Source: Chitinophagales bacterium (lineage in GTDB: Bacteria; Bacteroidota; Bacteroidia; Chitinophagales; LD1). From it: a DNA stretch of 64,000 nucleotides. A program made the position numbers and the translations under genes. The stretch spans positions 1,854,329-1,918,328 of the forward strand of contig JAXLUM010000001.1 in assembly GCA_046329515.1 (NCBI GenBank), given 5' to 3'. The notes under the pieces are model-generated. The model made no database searches, was not told the origin of the DNA, and worked only from the letters and a program-made list of their open reading frames with translations. The stretch's first letter is position 1, and each line of letters begins with the position of its first letter. Of this stretch, positions 9,419 through 54,467 are shown one piece after another.

Positions 9419-10570
9419 ATGTATATACCATTTAACAAACCCTTTATTTCGGGCAGGGAACTTGAATTTATATTGGAGGCCGTTAATTCCGGTAAAATTT
9501 CCGGGGACGGAATGTTTACCCGCAAGTGCCACGAGTTTTTTCAGACCAACTATGGTCTCAACAAATGCCTGCTAACTACTTCGTGTACGGATGCATTAGA
9601 AATGGCCGCGATACTAACAAAAATTCAGGAAGGTGATGAAGTAATAATGCCGTCCTACACTTTCGTTTCTACTGCAAATGCATTTAGATTGCGGGGTGCC
9701 AAAATTATTTTTGCTGATAGCCGGAAAGACCACCCGGGGGTTGATGAAGACCAAATTGAAAGCCTTATTACAACCAGAACAAAGGCTATTGTGCCGGTAC
9801 ATTATGCTGGAGTAGCCTGTCAAATGGATAGGATAACAGCATTGGCTAAAAAATACAGTCTGTTTGTAGTGGAAGATGCAGCACAAGCAATTGATTCATA
9901 CTACACGGGTGCAGACGGTAAAAAAAAGGCATTGGGCTCTATTGGTGATTTAGGTGCTTTTTCCTTTCACGAAACGAAGAATGTGATTGCCGGAGAAGGT
10001 GGAATGCTTGCTGTAAATAATAAAGAGTTTGCAGAAAGAAGTGAAATAATCCGGGAAAAAGGAACGAACCGTTCAGCCTTTTTTAGAGGAGAAGTAGATA
10101 AATATGGATGGGTGGATATTGGTAGCTCTTACCTACCATCAGATATAATTGCAGCGTTTTTATACGCGCAATTAGAGAACCTACAACTCATTCAGGAAAG
10201 AAGAAAACAGATATGGGAACTGTATTGGAAGCGTTTGAATCCACTGCAGAATGCTGGGAAAGTGAAGTTGCCCGTTATTCCGGATTACGCCACCAACAAT
10301 GCGCATATGTTCTACTTGGTACTAAACAGCCTCAAGGACAGAACCGGATTGATAGAAGCACTGAAGAAGTATGATATACATGCAGTGTTCCATTATGTTT
10401 CGCTTCATAAAAGCAGCTACTATGTGCAAGGTAAAGAAGCGCAACCCTTGCCCATGGTGGAATTGTATAGCGACCGCTTGTTGCGTCTACCTCTTTTCTT
10501 TGATCTGACGGATGAGCAGGTGAATATGATATCGGATATGATAATAAACTACTTCGGCTTACCTGCTTAG
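9419..10570 (+). CDS. wecE: dTDP-4-amino-4,6-dideoxyhexose (Fuc4N/Qui4N-type) PLP aminotransferase, DegT/WecE family
   Basis: The N-terminus of the 383-aa product, IPFNKPFISGRELEFILEAVNSGKISGDGMFTRKCHEFF...LLTTSCTDALEMAAIL...GDEVIMPSYTFVSTANAF.LRGAKI.F.D, tracks E. coli WecE closely as I recall it. The PLP-lysine motif SFHETKN is present. Confidence 0.85.
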   Translation: MYIPFNKPFISGRELEFILEAVNSGKISGDGMFTRKCHEFFQTNYGLNKCLLTTSCTDALEMAAILTKIQEGDEVIMPSYTFVSTANAFRLRGAKIIFADSRKDHPGVDEDQIESLITTRTKAIVPVHYAGVACQMDRITALAKKYSLFVVEDAAQAIDSYYTGADGKKKALGSIGDLGAFSFHETKNVIAGEGGMLAVNNKEFAERSEIIREKGTNRSAFFRGEVDKYGWVDIGSSYLPSDIIAAFLYAQLENLQLIQERRKQIWELYWKRLNPLQNAGKVKLPVIPDYATNNAHMFYLVLNSLKDRTGLIEALKKYDIHAVFHYVSLHKSSYYVQGKEAQPLPMVELYSDRLLRLPLFFDLTDEQVNMISDMIINYFGLPA

Positions 10571-10591
10571 CCGCCGAACCATGCCAGCAAA

Positions 10592-12133
10592 ATGAAAGAG
10601 AATAAGTGGTTCATAACTATATCCTGGATTGGTGTTTGCACATTATGTACAGCCCTATATACTCTGTTTTTCATCCATACCTTTTACCACGACCGATACA
10701 TAAGCCTCAGTGGCGATGCGGAACAATATGTTGGTTCTGCTGAAAAGCTATATACTAATTTTGAATACTCCTTTTACCGTACGGATGACATGAACTTTCG
10801 TTCGAACAAGATGATAGGTAAGCCTATTGATAAAGGAATATACTACGCTTATCGTACGCCCGGCTATTTGTTCATTTATATGCCTTTGCGTTTTTTGCTC
10901 AACCAAACAAGCACCTTGTATGCCATACTTGTACTACAAGTTCTTGCTGTTTCCATAAGCAAGTACCTGCTCGCCAGAATTTCGCAGAAAATTGCAGGCG
11001 GGACTATTTTCGCATTTCTGACAGTTATGCTCTGTCTGAATGTAATGCCGCAGTTTCATTACTTGTTGATGAGTTTTTTGACAGAACCTTGGGCCATATC
11101 GTTCCTCGTATTTTCAATGGCCTGCTTATTTCTTGTAAAGGAAGAAAAACTAAGCAGCCCAACGATTCTTCTTATAAGTGGCTTTTTTATGATGATAGCC
11201 GTTATGCTTCGGCCTTTTCTCGTTTTCTTCCCTTTGTTTTTATTGGTATGGTTATTCTTTAAGGGAGTAAAAAAAATGTCAATACTCGTGCTGTTTGTAT
11301 TGCCGATCCTATTCGTTGATACTATTTGGTCTGCCCGTAACCTGATTACTGCAGGGGAGTTTATTCCTTTATCTAAAACATTGCAGATTTTTGATTACAG
11401 TCACGAAGGGTTTAATGCGCAACGTGATTTATGCAAAGACCTAGGCACTTCAACGGAATGGTGGAAGCCTGAATCGTTAATATATTGGTTTCATCACCCC
11501 GAGGATGGACGACCGGCCTCTGAAGTTCTGCCTGAAAAATTTCTTGCTGTAAAAGAGAACAGAAGATTGATGGTAGATGCTAAAGCAGCATATACTTTAT
11601 CCAACGATACAAGTGTAAACCTTGAAGAGCGCATACGATTTGAGAAAGAATCGGCCCGGTTAATTAAGATAGCGAATAACCAATTCAAAACAACATACCC
11701 TTTAGACGCCAGTGTTAAAAGCAGACTTACTGTTTTAAAAACCTTTATAGAGATGCCATTGGTAAAACCCTTGATTGGGTTTCGTTACCCCATAAATGTG
11801 CTTACAGTGTTTGCAGAGGCTTTCCTGTATTGGTTTGTAGTGTTAGGCGGATTTATGGCCATATTATTTTACGTTTTTGTAAAACGCAGTGCCGAGGGGA
11901 TGATACTAAGCTTCTTACCTATGTTTATGCTTATACTGTTTGCCTTTGTAATCCGCTTGTGCGAACATAGGGAGCTTTTCATTCCGCATTTTCTGCTTGC
12001 TGCATTAGCCTCTGCGTATGTTGGCAGTGTTTTTAGCATGAAAAAGCTAGAACAAAAATTGGTATGGATAATACCATTTATACCGATTTTATTACTGGCG
12101 GGGTATACAACCAAACGTTCCATCGTTTGGTAA
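10592..12133 (+). CDS. Polytopic membrane protein, probable GT-C fold glycosyltransferase (PMT_2/ArnT-like)
   Basis: The 513-aa product has about 11-13 hydrophobic helices by eye. The first loop motif SGDAEQYVGSAEKLY resembles the acidic D-x-x-x-Y loop of GT39/GT83-type enzymes. It starts 21 nt downstream of wecE. The CDS call is solid; the fold assignment is an inference. Confidence 0.6.
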   Translation: MKENKWFITISWIGVCTLCTALYTLFFIHTFYHDRYISLSGDAEQYVGSAEKLYTNFEYSFYRTDDMNFRSNKMIGKPIDKGIYYAYRTPGYLFIYMPLRFLLNQTSTLYAILVLQVLAVSISKYLLARISQKIAGGTIFAFLTVMLCLNVMPQFHYLLMSFLTEPWAISFLVFSMACLFLVKEEKLSSPTILLISGFFMMIAVMLRPFLVFFPLFLLVWLFFKGVKKMSILVLFVLPILFVDTIWSARNLITAGEFIPLSKTLQIFDYSHEGFNAQRDLCKDLGTSTEWWKPESLIYWFHHPEDGRPASEVLPEKFLAVKENRRLMVDAKAAYTLSNDTSVNLEERIRFEKESARLIKIANNQFKTTYPLDASVKSRLTVLKTFIEMPLVKPLIGFRYPINVLTVFAEAFLYWFVVLGGFMAILFYVFVKRSAEGMILSFLPMFMLILFAFVIRLCEHRELFIPHFLLAALASAYVGSVFSMKKLEQKLVWIIPFIPILLLAGYTTKRSIVW

Positions 12134-48563: not shown

Positions 48564-48715
48564 CTACCCCCTCCGCCAAACTTCGTATGGCTCGTCCCCC
48601 TTTCCGGGGGACAATAACCTAACTTCTTAGTTAAGCGCATTACTGTATTTAAACTGTCCTCCTGGCAGGAGGACGAGGAGATTCCGATAACAATCGGGAT
48701 TGACGGAGGAGGTAT
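48564..48715 (+). repeat. Multi-hairpin interspersed repeat, copy A (full length, 152 nt)
   Basis: Copy A contains four hairpins: GCCAAAC-TTC-GTATGGC, GTCCCCC-TTTCC-GGGGGAC, GTCCTCCT-GGC-AGGAGGAC and ATTCCGAT-AACA-ATCGGGAT. The 5' ACCCCCTCCGCC can pair with the 3' GACGGAGGAGGT. Homologous copies lie at 53123 and 54198. Confidence 0.85.
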
Positions 48716-48885
48716 TGAGCACAGAATGATATTAAAGACACATTCCCATTCCGATTACTTAATACGGGGCCTGATATTCTGCATTAAGCCCCTTCTATCC
48801 TACCTTCACAAAAAATATTTAGCAATAGAAATAGCTCTCTACCAGCTAATTAACAGCAGCTATCCACAGCCCTGAATCTCGCCTC

Positions 48886-48940: not shown

Positions 48941-49378
48941 ATGACTAAACAGGACATTTTAAAGGAAAAACCGCTGGACCCGGAGCTGCTGCGTCCGCAG
49001 TTTTGGCAAATGCTGGAGGATAGCGAAATAGATGAGGCCTTTCAAAAACTGGATGAGCTGACTATGGAACTGGCCCTCCGCCTGCAACGCATGGAGCAAA
49101 CCGACCTGTTTAAACTAACCAACCAACAGGCGCTTGACACCATACGCCAAATGGAGCGCCAGCGCTTTGTGGTAGAAACCCTGTTTAACGCGCGTGAATT
49201 CGCCATGCAGCTTATTGATGCCCGCAAACAGAACCGTCTGCTGCAACTGCAATTAACAGAACGCAACTTTCAACTGCAATGCACCAATGATGCCCTAATA
49301 CAAACCCACGAAAGCCTTGAGTTTACTACGGAGCTGTGTGAGAAATATATGGACCAGTTGGCTAGTGGTAAAGGGTAA
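48941..49378 (+). CDS. Hypothetical coiled-coil protein
   Basis: The 145-aa product is rich in Leu/Gln/Glu/Arg heptad-like stretches (LQRMEQTDLFKL...RKQNRLLQLQLTERNFQLQ). I recognised no catalytic motif. Confidence 0.6.
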   Translation: MTKQDILKEKPLDPELLRPQFWQMLEDSEIDEAFQKLDELTMELALRLQRMEQTDLFKLTNQQALDTIRQMERQRFVVETLFNAREFAMQLIDARKQNRLLQLQLTERNFQLQCTNDALIQTHESLEFTTELCEKYMDQLASGKG

Positions 49379-49510
49379 ATGGCAAGCGGTGAACGGTAAA
49401 TAGCAAGTGGTGAATACAAACTCTTACTTCATACTTCTCAATTCTAACTTCTCAATTCTAAACTCTCACTTCAAACTTCTTATTTCTCACTTCATACTTC
49501 AAACTTTTCA
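49360..49510 (+). repeat. Iteron-like direct-repeat cluster immediately upstream of the ATPase gene
   Basis: A 21-bp unit is repeated in tandem: GGTAAATGGCAAGCGGTGAAC at 49374-49394 and GGTAAATAGCAAGTGGTGAAT at 49395-49415, with a partial copy just upstream. A perfect 14-nt tandem CTTCTCAATTCTAA occurs twice (49434-49461). At least four ACTTCAWACTTC-type words lie between 49426 and 49506. Confidence 0.8.
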
Positions 49511-49513
49511 CTA

Positions 49514-50530
49514 ATGGAAGACAAACTCCGCCAAATGATTGACCGCTTAAATACTGACCGCGGCGAGAAACTATTACTAATGAAACCCGCTGCACAATGG
49601 ATGCTGGAGGCCAGCCGCACGCCGGACCCTAAACTGCTGTTCAGCACCTTTTGGCGCGAGGGCGAACTGGCTATATTGTTTGCTGATACCAACGTGGGCA
49701 AAAGCATACTGGCCGTGCAAATTGCCGATGCCATAAGCCGTGGCCAGGGCGATGAACTGTGCCGCGTGGCCGTGCCTGCCCAAAAGGTATTGTATATGGA
49801 CTTTGAACTTAGCGCCAAGCAATTTCAAAAGCGCTATTGTAATGAGGCGGGGCGCATGTATAACTTCAGCGATAACTTTATACGCGTTGAGCTTAACCGC
49901 CACATGAAGCTGCTTACTGATTTTGACGGCGCCCTGTGGGCCGGAATTGAACGCGCCATTACCGAAAGCGGCGCACGTGTGCTTATAGTTGATAACCTTA
50001 CCGCCCTAAAACTGCAAAGCACCGAAGCCGCCAAGGAGGCCATACCGCTAATGAATAACCTGCTGCAACTTAAACACAAACTGGGCCTTAGCATATTGGT
50101 GGTGGCGCACACGCCCAAGCGCAACCGCAGCAACCCCATTACCGAAAACGACCTTGCCGGCAGCAAACTTATAAGCAACCTGGCCGATACCCTTTTTGCC
50201 ATTGGCCACAGCGCCATGGGCAGCGACATGCGCTACCTTATACACGTAAAGGACCGCAGCGGCAACAAACAGTTTGGGTACGACAATGTAATTAGCTGCC
50301 GCGTAGTAAAAACCGATGCACAACTCTGCTTTATGCCGCAGGGTTACGGCCCCGAAAAGGACCACCTTAGCCCACCCGAAACCGGCGATAGCCGCGCACA
50401 ACTGGATAGCGATATTGTGGATTTGTATAACAGCAACCCCAACCTAAGCAACCGCGAAATTGCCCGGCAGTTGAATACAAACCCTATGAAGGTAACAAGG
50501 GTATTGCAACGCGAAAAGCTGCTTGATTAA
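49514..50530 (+). CDS. RecA-fold (AAA_25/RepA-like) ATPase with a C-terminal helix-turn-helix
   Basis: The 338-aa product has Walker A FADTNVGKS (nt 49685-49705) and Walker B ARVLIVDNLTAL, followed by SILVVAHTPK. The C-terminal NLSNREIARQLNTNPMKVTRVLQRE looks like an HTH. The gene is GC-rich relative to its neighbours. Confidence 0.8.
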   Translation: MEDKLRQMIDRLNTDRGEKLLLMKPAAQWMLEASRTPDPKLLFSTFWREGELAILFADTNVGKSILAVQIADAISRGQGDELCRVAVPAQKVLYMDFELSAKQFQKRYCNEAGRMYNFSDNFIRVELNRHMKLLTDFDGALWAGIERAITESGARVLIVDNLTALKLQSTEAAKEAIPLMNNLLQLKHKLGLSILVVAHTPKRNRSNPITENDLAGSKLISNLADTLFAIGHSAMGSDMRYLIHVKDRSGNKQFGYDNVISCRVVKTDAQLCFMPQGYGPEKDHLSPPETGDSRAQLDSDIVDLYNSNPNLSNREIARQLNTNPMKVTRVLQREKLLD

Positions 50531-50582
50531 GTGTAACACTGTAACAGTTGTAACACGCATAACAGCCGTTACACTGTTACAT
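50531..50582. repeat. Palindromic element, copy 1 (abuts the ATPase stop codon)
   Basis: The sequence is GTGTAACAC-TGTAACAGTTGTAAC-ACGCATAACAGCC-GTTACACTGTTACA-T, homologous to 52958-52999. Confidence 0.85.
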
Positions 50583-50907: not shown

Positions 50908-51087
50908 TTACCCCTCGCTGCTTTGCATTTTGTCCTGAAGGTGGGCTACCATCTTTAGATATTCCTCTTTTTCCTTAGGTGGCATGGCATCCAGTTTCCT
51001 TTTGGCTTCTGCCAAAGCCTCAGGCGAAAAAAAACGCTTGAGCGCTTTTTGATGTAACGCTTCTAATTCTTCTTTGCTGCGTTCCAT
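50908..51087 (-). CDS. Hypothetical small helical protein (59 aa; below the ORF-track threshold)
   Basis: My own translation is MERSKEELEALHQKALKRFFSPEALAEAKRKLDAMPPKEKEEYLKMVAHLQDKMQSSEG. It is divergent from the methyltransferase gene. Its stop abuts the stop of the 50692 ORF (TAATTA at 50905-50910). Confidence 0.4.
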   Translation of the reverse strand: MERSKEELEALHQKALKRFFSPEALAEAKRKLDAMPPKEKEEYLKMVAHLQDKMQSSEG

Positions 51088-51223: not shown

Positions 51224-51294
51224 GTCAGTCTGAGCTTGTCGAAGACGACAATCGTATTGCGCAGTTAAGCACCCTTCGACAGGCTCAGGGTGAC
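51224..51294. repeat. Inverted-repeat (MITE/REP-like) element of the GTCACCCTGAGCCTGTCGAAGGG family
   Basis: The 21-nt arms GTCAGTCTGAGCTTGTCGAAG and CTTCGACAGGCTCAGGGTGAC have 1 mismatch and 2 G-T pairs, with a 29-nt loop. The element ends 31 nt upstream of the methyltransferase ATG. The spurious ORF 51020-51334 reads HPEPVEGC through it. Confidence 0.8.
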
Positions 51295-51325
51295 AGAGCG
51301 CTATATTATAAAATGGTAATAACCC

Positions 51326-52957
51326 ATGAACCACCTGTACTTTGGCGATAGCCTTGATATACTAAAGGAACTGCATGCCCAGCACCCCGAAGGCTTTATT
51401 GACCTAATATATATTGACCCGCCTTTTAACAGCAAGCGCAATTACAATGTGTTGTTTGAAACCGTAGATATACATGATGCCAAGGCACAGAAAGAAGCCT
51501 TTGCCGATACCTGGAGCAACGTAAGTTATTTTGATACCATAAGTGAGTTAAAGGCTTCAGAATTACATCTCACTAATTTGTTAGAAGGATTACAAGCTGC
51601 TGGTATTAGTAAAAGCGCGATTAGCTATTTATCGACTATGGCTATACGTATTTTTTATATACACAAAGTATTAAAGTCTACAGGCAGTTTCTACTTGCAT
51701 TGCGACACCACCATGAGCCACTATCTTAAAATAATCTGTGATATCATTTTTGGTGTTAAGAATTTCAGAAACGATATTATCTGGAAAAGAAGTGATGCAA
51801 AAGGTGATATCAGTCAAGGCGCTAAGCACCTGGGTAGAAATACAGATAACATTCTTTTTTACACAAAATCCGATGACGCCTATATCACCCAGTTGTACAC
51901 TCCTATGACCGAAGATTACATTGATAGATTTTATAGGCACATTGAAGAAGGAACTGGCAGAAGGTATAAGCTCGATAATATGCTCGGCCCAGGTGGCGCA
52001 GCAAAAGGCAATCCATATTACGAAGTGATGGGAATAAAGAGATATTGGCGTTACAGTAAGGAAAAAATGGCTGAGCTTATTAAAGCGGGTCGCGTAATTC
52101 AGACTAACCCAGGTACAGTACCCATGTATAAAAGATATTTGGACGAATCAAAAGGTGTGCCTTTAGGTAATTTATGGATTGACATAGACCTTGTACGCGG
52201 TCATTCTAAAGAAAAGCTAGGATATCCAACACAAAAGCCTGTAGCCTTGTTAGAAAGGATTATTCAAATAAGCAGTAAACCCGGTGATTTGGTTGCTGAC
52301 TTCTTTTGCGGTTGCGGTACTACCATAGCTGCTGCCCAAAAGCTAAACCGTAAATGGATAGGCGTTGATATTAGCCACTTAGCCGTAGGCTTAATACGCA
52401 AGCGCTTAATTGATAACTATGGCGAAGAGATAAACAAGACCTTTGATATAAAAGGCTTACCTAAGGATGTTGCCAGTGCACACATGCTGGCCGAGCAGCC
52501 GCAGGGCCGTATGCGTTTTCAGGATTGGGTTATTGAAACCCTTATTGGCGGCGTAACCAACGAAAAGAAAGTGGGCGATGGCGGTTATGATGGCTACACT
52601 ACGTTAGAAGTAGAGAAGGGTAAAAAAGAGATAGTATATATTGAAGTTAAAAGCGGTAACATAAACGTTAGCACCCTGCGCAGCTTTGCTAAAACCGTGC
52701 AACAGCAAAAAGGCAGTGCCGGTATATTAGTTTGTTTTAAAGAACAAATTACCAAGGGCATGTTAAACGAAGCCAAGGGCGAGGGTTACTTCCGCGAAGA
52801 TTTATTCGGCAACCGCTTCGATAAAATACAGATAATAAGTGTAGAAGATTTACTGGATGGTAAAATGCCTGAACTGCCCCGCAGTACCGAAACAGGCCCA
52901 TTCAAAAAAGCCGAGAAAGCCGAAAAGAAAGGCAAAAGCAAGGGATTGTTTGATTAG
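51326..52957 (+). CDS. Beta-class (N6-adenine/N4-cytosine type, DPPF) DNA methyltransferase fused to a C-terminal PD-(D/E)XK Mrr-like restriction-endonuclease domain
   Basis: In the 543-aa product, motif IV IYIDPPF (nt 51416-51427) lies N-terminal to the AdoMet motif I DFFCGCGTT (nt 52298-52321), which is the beta permutation. QKP lies before motif I. The C-terminal VGDGGYDGY...IVYIEVKSG (D418/D422, E440-V-K442) fits the Mrr_cat-type D...(D/E)xK signature. Confidence 0.85.
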   Translation: MNHLYFGDSLDILKELHAQHPEGFIDLIYIDPPFNSKRNYNVLFETVDIHDAKAQKEAFADTWSNVSYFDTISELKASELHLTNLLEGLQAAGISKSAISYLSTMAIRIFYIHKVLKSTGSFYLHCDTTMSHYLKIICDIIFGVKNFRNDIIWKRSDAKGDISQGAKHLGRNTDNILFYTKSDDAYITQLYTPMTEDYIDRFYRHIEEGTGRRYKLDNMLGPGGAAKGNPYYEVMGIKRYWRYSKEKMAELIKAGRVIQTNPGTVPMYKRYLDESKGVPLGNLWIDIDLVRGHSKEKLGYPTQKPVALLERIIQISSKPGDLVADFFCGCGTTIAAAQKLNRKWIGVDISHLAVGLIRKRLIDNYGEEINKTFDIKGLPKDVASAHMLAEQPQGRMRFQDWVIETLIGGVTNEKKVGDGGYDGYTTLEVEKGKKEIVYIEVKSGNINVSTLRSFAKTVQQQKGSAGILVCFKEQITKGMLNEAKGEGYFREDLFGNRFDKIQIISVEDLLDGKMPELPRSTETGPFKKAEKAEKKGKSKGLFD

Positions 52958-52999
52958 TGTAACAGTGTAACACCCATAACAGCCGTTACACTGTTACAT
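52958..52999. repeat. Palindromic element, copy 2 (abuts the methyltransferase stop codon)
   Basis: The 14-bp arms TGTAACAGTGTAAC and GTTACACTGTTACA are perfect, with a 13-nt loop ACCCATAACAGCC. Confidence 0.9.
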
Positions 53000-53122
53000 T
53001 AAAGTCAACTACCGTATATTTATCGTCCTTGCAATTCTAAGGACCGGTGAAGAACCCATGCCTTAGTTCAATGTAGGGTGCGCCTTTCTGCAAAGAGAGG
53101 CGTTTTATCTTTCGCCCTATTC

Positions 53123-53225
53123 AATAACCCAGCTTCTTAATTAAGCGCTACACTGTATTTAAACTGTCCTCCTACACAGGAGGACGAGGAAATCCCGATA
53201 ACAATCGGGATTGACGGAGGAGGTA
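53123..53225 (+). repeat. Multi-hairpin interspersed repeat, copy B (3' 103 nt only)
   Basis: Copy B aligns with 48613-48715 of copy A with about 12-13 differences by eye. It retains the hairpins GTCCTCCT-ACAC-AGGAGGAC and ATCCCGAT-AACA-ATCGGGAT. Confidence 0.85.
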
Positions 53226-53259
53226 GTGCATTTTACCTGCCTACTTATATATTCGCCGC

Positions 53260-53974: not shown

Positions 53975-54182
53975 ATTCCGTGTCGCAGCACGGAATGACG
54001 GGACTGGTTGTATTTTTTCCCCTCCTTGGCTAAGGAGGGGCAGAAACAGACTCCGCTTGCGGAGGATGGTTCGGGGTGGTTTGATATTACTACCACCTCT
54101 ACTTTGAAAACGCTCCGCATTTTTAAATTCTTCTCCTACTTAAAAAGGAGGAGAATCTAAACACAAGCACGGAATGACGGGA
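53975..54182. repeat. Cluster of short GC-rich hairpin repeats
   Basis: ATTCCGTG-TCGCAG-CACGGAAT lies at 53975-53996 and CCCCTCCTT-GGCT-AAGGAGGGG at 54019-54040. TTCTCCT...AGGAGGAGAA follows, and the word CACGGAATGACGGGA occurs twice (53989-54003 and 54168-54182). Confidence 0.75.
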
Positions 54183-54197
54183 ATGTGTTTTTGCATA

Positions 54198-54363
54198 CTA
54201 CCCCCTCCGCCATACTTCGTATGGCTCGTCCCCCTGTCCCGAAGTATCGGGAGGGGGACAATAACCTAACTTCTTAGTTAAGCGCAGTACTGTATTTAAA
54301 CTGTCCTACTACACAGGAGGACGAGGAAATCACGATTGCAATCGGGATTGACGGAGGAGGTAT
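54198..54363 (+). repeat. Multi-hairpin interspersed repeat, copy C (full length, 166 nt, with an extra nested hairpin)
   Basis: Copy C has the same architecture as copy A, plus an inserted TCCCGAAGTATCGGGA hairpin inside the GTCCCCC/GGGGGAC stem-loop. Confidence 0.85.
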
Positions 54364-54467
54364 TTAATTCCTCCCTCTGCCTCACTGCGTTCGGCTTCTC
54401 CCTCCAAAGGGAGACAGGTTTGCCCTCCGCGATGGAGATGGTTTTACTAACCCCGCCTCCCAACTAC

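Follow-up and report, generated by a model that had tools for sequence, protein, structure and literature searches.

A DNA methyltransferase with a fused, predicted Mrr-type nuclease domain and an exchangeable recognition segment in a Chitinophagales genome

The DNA analyzed here (the window) is a stretch of 64,000 nucleotides (nt) from a Chitinophagales bacterium (GenBank assembly GCA_046329515.1, contig JAXLUM010000001.1, positions 1,854,329 to 1,918,328 of the forward strand). At positions 51326..52957 (+ strand), the list of open reading frames (ORFs) of the window contains a gene with an ATG start that encodes a fusion protein of 543 amino acids (aa), in which a DNA methyltransferase is followed by a nuclease-fold domain. 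The protein was identical to a 543-aa ORF on record from a Chitinophagales metagenome-assembled genome (P0001), which is annotated there as 'site-specific DNA-methyltransferase'. An earlier note on this DNA, made from the letters alone, had described a beta-class methylase and an Mrr-like PD-(D/E)XK module in one chain, with a lysine-rich tail and with no partner R or S gene. This description was borne out. Pfam, the AlphaFold2 (AF2) model and Foldseek agreed on the fusion, the tail is present (KKAEKAEKKGKSKGLFD at aa 527-543), and no partner R or S gene was found within 10 kb in the window.

The methyltransferase region spans aa 25-353 (51398..52384, + strand), where Pfam N6_N4_Mtase (PF01555) matched with E=7e-44 and 150.8 bits against a cutoff of 26.7. 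Its best match among the sequences of the Protein Data Bank (PDB) was the Mod protein 6k0w of H. pylori (1.6e-15), and its best Foldseek match was EcoP15I Mod (4zcf, 4.8e-21). Both searches indicated a Mod-type methylase fold with a central target-recognition domain (TRD), structurally nearest to Type III Mod. In the translation, the catalytic motif IV DPPF lies at aa 31-34 (51416..51427, + strand; IYIDPPF = aa 28-34) and motif I DFFCGCGTT, the S-adenosylmethionine (SAM)-binding loop, at aa 325-333 (52298..52324, + strand; FFCGCG = aa 326-331). D31, P32, P33 and F34, as well as all positions from D325 to T332, were invariant in the alignment of close homologues (A1). The order of the motifs, with DPPF before DFFCGCGTT and a variable region between them, is that of the beta class, as the earlier note had claimed, and the Pfam match accords with it. 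The Asp form of motif IV, together with adenine-family matches below threshold, points to N6-adenine as the predicted target; the nearest named families were adenine-specific, with all matches partial and below the curated cutoffs.

The C-terminal domain (C-domain) occupies aa ~394-515 (52505..52870, + strand) and was delimited by Pfam, AF2, Foldseek, a sequence profile against the PDB, and conservation. The translation shows GDGGYDGY at aa 417-424 and IVYIEVKSG at aa 436-444. Two Pfam families matched here, namely NA-iREase1 (PF22722; aa 399-487, E=6.7e-10, 39.4 bits, cutoff 27) and, barely over its cutoff of 21, Mrr_cat (PF04471; aa 410-482, E=1.8e-4, 22.1 bits). In the AF2 model of the whole protein, the mean predicted local distance difference test score (pLDDT) was 79.8 and the blocks of the C-domain scored 79-94; a model of aa 380-543 alone reached 80.8. 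Both models gave the alpha-beta-beta-beta-alpha-beta core of the PD-(D/E)XK fold (helix 398-407, strands 423-430 and 433-441, helix 448-460, strand 465-470), with E404 on helix 1, D422 opening strand 2, and E440-V-K442 closing strand 3. The Foldseek matches of the isolated domain were MspJI, EcoO109I, Rpb5, BamHI, EcoT38I, PaqCI, OkrAI and Ecl18kI, with probabilities of 0.97-1.0, so that the top matches were all restriction nucleases or Rpb5. The N-domain of Rpb5, a known nuclease-fold relic, was also found with the sequence profile of the C-domain against the PDB (1e-4). Because the modeled topology, the Foldseek matches and the profile match to the Rpb5 N-domain coincide, we regard the predicted PD-(D/E)XK fold as a sound assignment.

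Structure and profile searches, on which the earlier note had made its nuclease claim depend, thus found the fold, with E404, D422, E440 and K442 in place. The note had proposed D418, E440 and K442 as catalytic residues. E440 and K442 stood, and D418 did not, since the canonical 'PD' aspartate is D422, which was invariant in all 30 close homologues (54-73% identity), as were E404, E440, K442, S443 and G444. D418 was variable in some of these 30 sequences, yet it was kept in 131 of 147 representatives of the wider family. Among the same representatives (the best 147 from 50% clusters), D422 was present in 140 and K442 in 144, and position 440 held Ser (66), Gln (50) or Glu (29). The family as a whole fell into three classes at the second catalytic position, ExK, QxK and SxK. 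The ExK class has a GIFVCF core and an acidic residue on helix 1, and the QxK and SxK classes have the core GADxGIDG ... GxFITLE.PT. Among the copies examined, the actinophage proteins Dwayne gp48 and Dori gp42 and a copy on a Microbacterium plasmid belonged to the SxK class. Of 77 non-redundant loci, taken from genomes of more than 10 phyla, 56 had DDQK, 13 DDEK and 6 DDSK at positions 418/422/440/442, and the D..D..[E/Q/S]xK nuclease motif was thus retained in 75 of the 77. According to reviews, PD-QxK is the usual active configuration of Mrr-like nucleases, e.g. MspJI and the Type ISP enzymes. The nuclease motif is, judging by this conservation, under strong purifying selection across phyla, and the retention of the active site over more than 10 phyla argues for a functional catalytic site.

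Catalytic domains of the Mrr/MspJI type are used by modification-dependent enzymes, which raises the possibility that the protein combines a methylase with a Type IV, Mrr-like nuclease attacking foreign-modified DNA, the methylase having an unrelated role or marking the host's own DNA. We consider this improbable. Among the Pfam domains of the fusion protein there was no reader of modified bases, and neither Pfam nor AF2 revealed an Mrr_N winged helix, SRA or PUA domain; the N-terminal 390 aa are all methylase, and the only sequence-reading part is the TRD of the methylase itself. A nuclease dependent on the mark set by its own chain would be suicidal, and Mrr-type domains also occur in enzymes that cut unmodified DNA, e.g. 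Type ISP.

The central segment of the methylase (aa ~151-300; 51776..52225, + strand) was hypervariable and is presumed to be the TRD. The mean majority frequency was 0.46-0.61 at aa 151-300, against 0.8-0.9 around the catalytic motifs. Among homologues P0062, P0071 and P0093, the flanks were 95-98% identical and the central segment only 28-37% identical. In the sister element L092 (described below), unrelated and shorter DNA was found exactly at the TRD region. Because the drop in conservation, the comparison of homologues and the replacement in L092 all fall on this segment, the presumed recognition segment (aa ~155-290) is exchanged as a cassette. The earlier note had taken an AT-rich dip in the middle of the gene as a possible sign of a swapped specificity region. 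Both the dip and, from the comparison of homologues, the swapping were confirmed, but the two do not coincide: the dip covers aa 61-150 (GC content 0.33-0.34), which is mostly conserved sequence, whereas the hypervariable aa 151-300 have a GC content of 0.37-0.46. Along the protein, GC content and conservation were uncorrelated (rho 0.02), and AT-richness was rejected as a marker of the swapped segment.

The fusion gene belongs to a large family. More than 120 full-length homologues were found at 52% identity or higher. Word-indexed searches with the C-domain alone gave only gene fragments, and an exhaustive profile search was used instead; among 1.84 billion cluster representatives, it found 2800 proteins, each standing for a 50% cluster (1139 at E<=1e-10), in which the C-domain was nearly always located at the C-terminus of a methylase. 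For the genome loci, tblastn with the C-domain lacked sensitivity and overlooked the Q and S classes, and it was replaced by a hidden Markov model (HMM) built from the representatives. With this model, 79 of 89 methylase ORFs carried the C-domain, indicating that the fusion is the rule. In one locus from a Candidatus Poribacteria chromosome (L029:~10001-11600), two adjacent ORFs encode the methylase (384 aa) and, separately, the nuclease-fold domain (149 aa, HMM E=2e-40), either as a natural two-gene version or through a frameshift.

The neighborhoods were unrelated between genomes, and the conserved position of Dam/CcrM-type orphan methylases was not seen. In the window, neither the ORFs nor Pfam showed an R, S or helicase gene in the 10 kb to each side of the methylase; genes in the flanks are those for an aminotransferase, a TonB receptor, secreted BNR proteins and NusB, together with an amino-acid dehydrogenase and a MiaB-like enzyme. 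No res gene lay within these 10 kb, and no neighbor recurred in 80 genome loci. When the ORFs from these 80 loci were clustered all against all, no neighbor family exceeded 15 loci, and the few families concerned were scattered in position. A Pfam scan of 148 immediate neighbors found no family more than 2 times, and most of the neighbors were housekeeping enzymes.

Several relatives lie on mobile elements. Full-length relatives were present in 28 phage genomes, where the annotation in every case is simply methylase. Cultured carriers of the family include Chromatium okenii DSM 169, Anabaenopsis elenkinii CCIBt3563 and Crocosphaera sp. XPORK-15E, as well as Mesorhizobium japonicum MAFF 303099 and Microbacterium amylolyticum DSM 24221, in both of which the copy is on a plasmid. 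Copies in temperate actinophages adjoin the integrase: gp48 of Streptomyces phage Dwayne lies beside a serine integrase, and gp42 of Mycobacterium phage Dori between LysB and the integrase. The Microbacterium plasmid copy sits between zeta-toxin and Fic/VbhA (toxin-antitoxin) genes. The nearest relative (73% identical) has an HNH nuclease and the PADLOC candidate PDC-S32 as neighbors, and its 9-kb contig also holds genes for the large and small terminase. Tandem paralogues occurred in four loci (L009, L030, L033 and L053), which suggests that runs of paralogues are multi-specificity arrays. L030, L033 and L053 hold two paralogues each. In L009:10001-14687 (Candidatus Tariuqbacter arcticus), three full-length paralogues are adjacent and a fourth ORF (L009_7) clusters with them; the three aligned copies each end in ...LF(D/E).

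The lysine-rich tail (aa 520-543; 52883..52954, + strand) is predicted to be disordered (pLDDT below 50) and ends in ...SKGLFD. Among 119 full-length close homologues, 109 ended in [Q/S]xx[L/M/I]F(D/E) or QxxLx[L/F], with a freely varying linker before it. Similar ends were seen in distant members from Cyanobacteria (...QLELDI, ...QMKLEL), Alphaproteobacteria (...QESLF, ...QSALDL) and Spirochaeta (...QGKLF), as well as in Mycobacteriophage Dori (...QSTLFDTA), whereas a Planctomycetota/Verrucomicrobiota subgroup had no tail. The pattern of Q..[LIM] followed by either [FLM] or.[LIFM] was found within the last ten residues in 24-42% of four family samples, compared with 2% of 869 neighboring ORFs (p 5e-8 to 2e-36, not corrected for relatedness). 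The bacterial clamp-binding motif is QL(S/D)LF, and the tail of the family resembles a beta-clamp-binding motif in form and position; the motif could alternatively be a degron or an intramolecular latch. We put forward, as a tentative proposal drawn from these tail patterns, that the family would provide the first case of a bacterial DNA methyltransferase, and likewise of a restriction-modification (R-M) enzyme, docking on the beta sliding clamp, using a C-terminal QxxLF/QxxLxL peptide and coupling re-methylation to the replication fork. Such docking may also couple the watch that the fused Mrr-type nuclease keeps on replicating foreign DNA. No bacterial methylase or R-M enzyme binding the clamp was found in the literature searched. 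If the clamp binding is true, bacteria too tie DNA methylation to their replication machinery.

The PD-(D/E)XK fold is common to MutH- and Vsr-type nickases. Together with the clamp-like tail, the fold would also suit a replication-coupled strand-nicking or repair enzyme, which would ride the clamp and nick the unmethylated daughter strand at hemimethylated sites. Hypervariable specificity and carriage by phages and plasmids are unlike housekeeping repair, however, and none of the neighborhoods examined showed a link to mutS or mutL; we therefore give a repair nickase very little credence.

In the window, the fusion gene lies within a 4.5-kb block bracketed by direct repeats of ~107 nt (left copy 48612..48717, right copy 53122..53228, both + strand; ~91% identity between the two). 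In order, the block comprises a 145-aa coiled-coil ORF, tandem-repeat arrays, a gene for an AAA_25 protein with a winged helix-turn-helix (wHTH), two small ORFs and the methylase. The AAA_25 gene (49514..50530, + strand; Pfam AAA_25 8e-24, HTH_24) encodes a RepA/DnaB-like protein, which matched a PHROG primase/helicase family and is similar to DnaB-like proteins; its homologues at 45% identity came from plasmids of Bacteroidales and from a circular, mobilisable cfxA element. Abutting its start codon are two iteron-like tandem-repeat arrays (49359..49512), one of 21 nt x 2.7 (consensus TGGCAAGTGGTGAACGGTAAA) and one of 14 nt x 6.9 (consensus CAAACTTCTCACTT). These arrays, which fill the 150 nt before the AAA_25 start, look like the iterons of a replication origin.

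Related elements were found in other genomes. L092:2924-4548 (GCA_044221835.1), compared with window positions 51278-52958, is a sister element with 81-85% DNA identity and the same pair of AAA_25 and methylase genes; its methylase was called as two fragments of 139 aa and 157 aa, and L092 is perhaps a copy in decay, or else the assembly may be in error there. L091:976-2634, in a related AAA_25 element, encodes a 552-aa KAP-family P-loop NTPase (Pfam 8.8e-11) in the slot of the methylase, which suggests a variable cargo position for defence-type genes. Because the AAA_25 protein is of the replication or mobilisation type, the ~107-nt repeat travels with AAA_25 genes, and the KAP NTPase is an alternative cargo in L091, the ATPase belongs to the vehicle, a plasmid-like or mobilisable element, of which the methylase is the cargo.

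The earlier note had also considered that the methylase might be the effector of a larger system with this neighboring ATPase. The ATPase and methylase genes share a strand and are separated by 0.8 kb, both in the window and again in L092, and the ATPase had a weak PADLOC match to mad8 (1.2e-4). However, in 84 other loci neither the ATPase nor the two small ORFs had a homologue beside the methylase, so that the pairing was limited to the near-identical sister L092. The primase/helicase matches, the iteron-like repeats ahead of the gene, the relatives on Bacteroidales plasmids and the cfxA element, and the related element with a KAP NTPase in place of the methylase all speak against a multi-gene system, which we judge to be the least probable of the explanations considered. 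The partnership was rejected on the absence of AAA_25 beside other methylases, the replication-type families that it matched, and the alternative cargo in L091.

The ~107-nt repeat is structured, with three internal hairpins (GTCCTCCT/AGGAGGAC, ATCCCGAT/ATCGGGAT). A third copy in direct orientation lies at ~54259-54365, and copies 1 and 3 have an additional ~60 nt of upstream homology in common. Two other genomes have the repeat in inverted orientation, likewise close to AAA_25 genes (L091:2711-2806, L092:5127-5249). It could be an element end, an attachment (att) site or a repeat like a miniature inverted-repeat transposable element (MITE). Simple Campbell-type integration marked by these repeats was considered; the third copy and the inverted orientation in L091 and L092 complicate it. 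The repeat matched no Rfam family, and Rfam gave nothing above threshold on 47-55 kb of the window. An exact-match scan of metagenomes for the repeat found none, and a scan with a degenerate pattern found one locus. No transfer RNA gene was present in the window. Matches below threshold to the small RNA family whalefall-1 of Rfam (54016-54081, +, 18.3 bits; 54368-54417, -, 27.4 bits; gathering threshold 37) flank the third repeat copy, and similar sequence was seen in L091:2826-3088.

Directly after the stop codon of the methylase lies a GTAACA-type inverted repeat (52954..53002). The same GTAACA-rich palindrome (TGTAACAC..CATAACAGCCGTTACACTGTTACAT, 97% identical) follows the stop codon of AAA_25 (50530-50582), and a search with the pattern of the element gave 4 matches against 0.04 expected; the palindrome may be a common terminator or a protein-binding site of the element. 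A terminator-like hairpin with a T-run was found further downstream of the methylase (53080..53103, + strand). Upstream, a 59-aa helical ORF (50908-51087, - strand) is likewise predicted as a gene in L093, which is an independent assembly, and an imperfect 21-nt inverted repeat (GTCAGTCTGAGCTTGTCGAAG / CTTCGACAGGCTCAGGGTGAC; 51224-51294) ends ~30 nt before the ATG of the methylase. By analogy with C proteins, the 59-aa ORF and the inverted repeat may be a small regulator and its operator.

Taken together, we favor the reading that the fusion protein is a self-contained, horizontally mobile single-chain R-M enzyme on a Type III-Mod-like chassis, with a predicted nuclease, and we hold this at about even confidence. 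It is favored because the nuclease motif appears to be under purifying selection and the gene behaves as a mobile unit of its own whose specificity segment is shuffled; PD-QxK as the active configuration in Mrr-like nucleases and the mobile and defence-type contexts of the nearest relatives support it further. The prevalence of the fusion also speaks for it, as does a diversification of specificity typical of R-M systems, seen in the cassette exchange, the replaced TRD of L092 and the tandem paralogues. A number of observations weigh against it. The best Pfam match of the C-domain, NA-iREase1, is a family named as an 'inactive' restriction endonuclease (REase), the Foldseek E-values of the isolated domain were weak (about 3e-3), and PADLOC gave no match on the C-domain, with no nuclease or Type IIG model covering it. 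Ser replaces the second acidic (metal-binding Glu) residue in 66 of the 147 representatives, and E404 is not kept beyond the close clade, position 404 being acidic only in the E class. Most genome copies lie among housekeeping genes and not in defence islands, and methylases on phages are usually protective orphans. The tail of the 543-aa protein itself (SKGLFD) does not have the Gln of the clamp motif, and no test of any family member was found in the searchable literature.

Many of the same observations fit an orphan adenine methyltransferase whose nuclease-fold domain is a non-cutting DNA-binding or dimerization module, the enzyme serving modification only, either to shield a mobile element from host restriction or to set an epigenetic mark, with a possible link to replication by way of the clamp-like tail. 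The 'inactive' label of NA-iREase1, the Ser at position 440, the loss of E404 across the family, the 28 phage genomes with full-length copies annotated as methylases, the housekeeping neighborhoods in most genomes, and the absence of a PADLOC nuclease model matching the C-domain are all in line with it. CcrM provides a precedent, as a beta-class methylase that requires a C-terminal DNA-binding domain. That domain was considered as a homologue of the C-domain and rejected; it is of a different, SAND-like fold, and the resemblance is one of functional analogy only. Moreover, 75 of 77 loci across phyla retain both aspartates and the lysine, mostly as D-QxK, where a relic would be expected to drift, and a hypervariable TRD in non-syntenic locations is unlike the conserved regulatory orphans of the Dam/CcrM type, which have fixed specificity. 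We regard the orphan as a real possibility, but a clearly less probable one than a single-chain R-M enzyme. The Ser class and the 'inactive' Pfam label nevertheless weigh against an active nuclease.

As a single-chain R-M enzyme, the protein would act as follows. The methylase would mark adenines at host sites defined by the TRD, with the central segment (aa ~151-300) presumably setting the recognition sequence. Two chains would pair as Mod subunits do, which would unite two Mrr-type nuclease domains, and the paired domains would cut both strands of DNA that does not carry the mark. A translocase or a separate specificity subunit would be unnecessary, as in Type IIG/IIC. More speculatively, the disordered basic tail would dock on the sliding clamp, leading to prompt re-methylation of newly replicated DNA. 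In annotation pipelines such proteins go by the plain name 'DNA methyltransferase', and to defence finders they look like orphan methylases and nothing more. Should the nuclease prove active, an unrecognized class of one-gene restriction systems would be present in thousands of genomes, phages and plasmids, the reading of 'orphan' methylases in methylome surveys would change, and compact, re-targetable methylase-nuclease enzymes with swappable recognition cassettes would be at hand. Literature searches (on the architecture, NA-iREase1 and clamp-binding bacterial methylases) found no description of the fusion family. Pfam annotations already show the combination of domains; what the present analysis adds is the cassette exchange and the clamp-like tail.

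Among known systems, CcrM is alike in that it, too, is a beta-class adenine methylase that lacks a partner endonuclease and carries an additional domain at its C-terminus. CcrM's C-terminal domain, which is SAND-like, holds the non-target strand in a dimer, and CcrM has fixed specificity and conserved synteny, whereas the fusion family is hypervariable and mobile. If the tail binds the clamp, there is a likeness to DNMT1 and PCNA, in which a methylase is also brought to newly replicated DNA by a short Q-x-x-L-type peptide; DNMT1, however, is of an unrelated class (5-methylcytosine) and its clamp is PCNA, and the interaction of the fusion family is deduced from a sequence pattern only. With the Mrr family (E. 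coli Mrr, MspJI, Type ISP LlaGI), the C-domain has in common the PD-(D/E)XK signature GxDxGxDG ... [E/Q]xKSG, including the Mrr-typical D-QxK in most members. It differs in having no modification reader or helicase, in the ExK of the window gene's clade and the SxK of a large subgroup, and in its best Pfam match, which was NA-iREase1 and not Mrr_cat. Type III Mod proteins (EcoP15I, H. pylori 6k0w) were the best matches among solved structures and likewise have a beta-class methylase with a central, exchangeable TRD, and the shuffling of TRD alleles resembles that of mod genes. However, Res, which combines a superfamily 2 (SF2) helicase and a nuclease, is not encoded beside the fusion gene, either in the window or in 85 loci, and a nuclease module without a motor is instead fused to Mod. 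As in the Type IIG/IIC enzymes (MmeI, BpuSI, Eco57I type), a nuclease-fold domain, methylase and target recognition are joined in a single polypeptide, the gene is solitary, specificity is altered through the recognition part, and there is no translocase. Cleavage by Type IIG/IIC enzymes is directed to sites and usually stimulated by SAM. The characterized ones begin with a nuclease, continue with a gamma-class methylase and end with the TRD, whereas in the fusion protein a beta-class methylase with an internal TRD comes first and is followed by the predicted Mrr-type nuclease at the C-terminus and by a tail resembling a clamp motif. The fusion protein would thus be functionally like the MmeI-type IIG/IIC enzymes and structurally like a Type III Mod without Res, and, as judged from its domains, it is best filed as a variant of the single-chain R-M systems.

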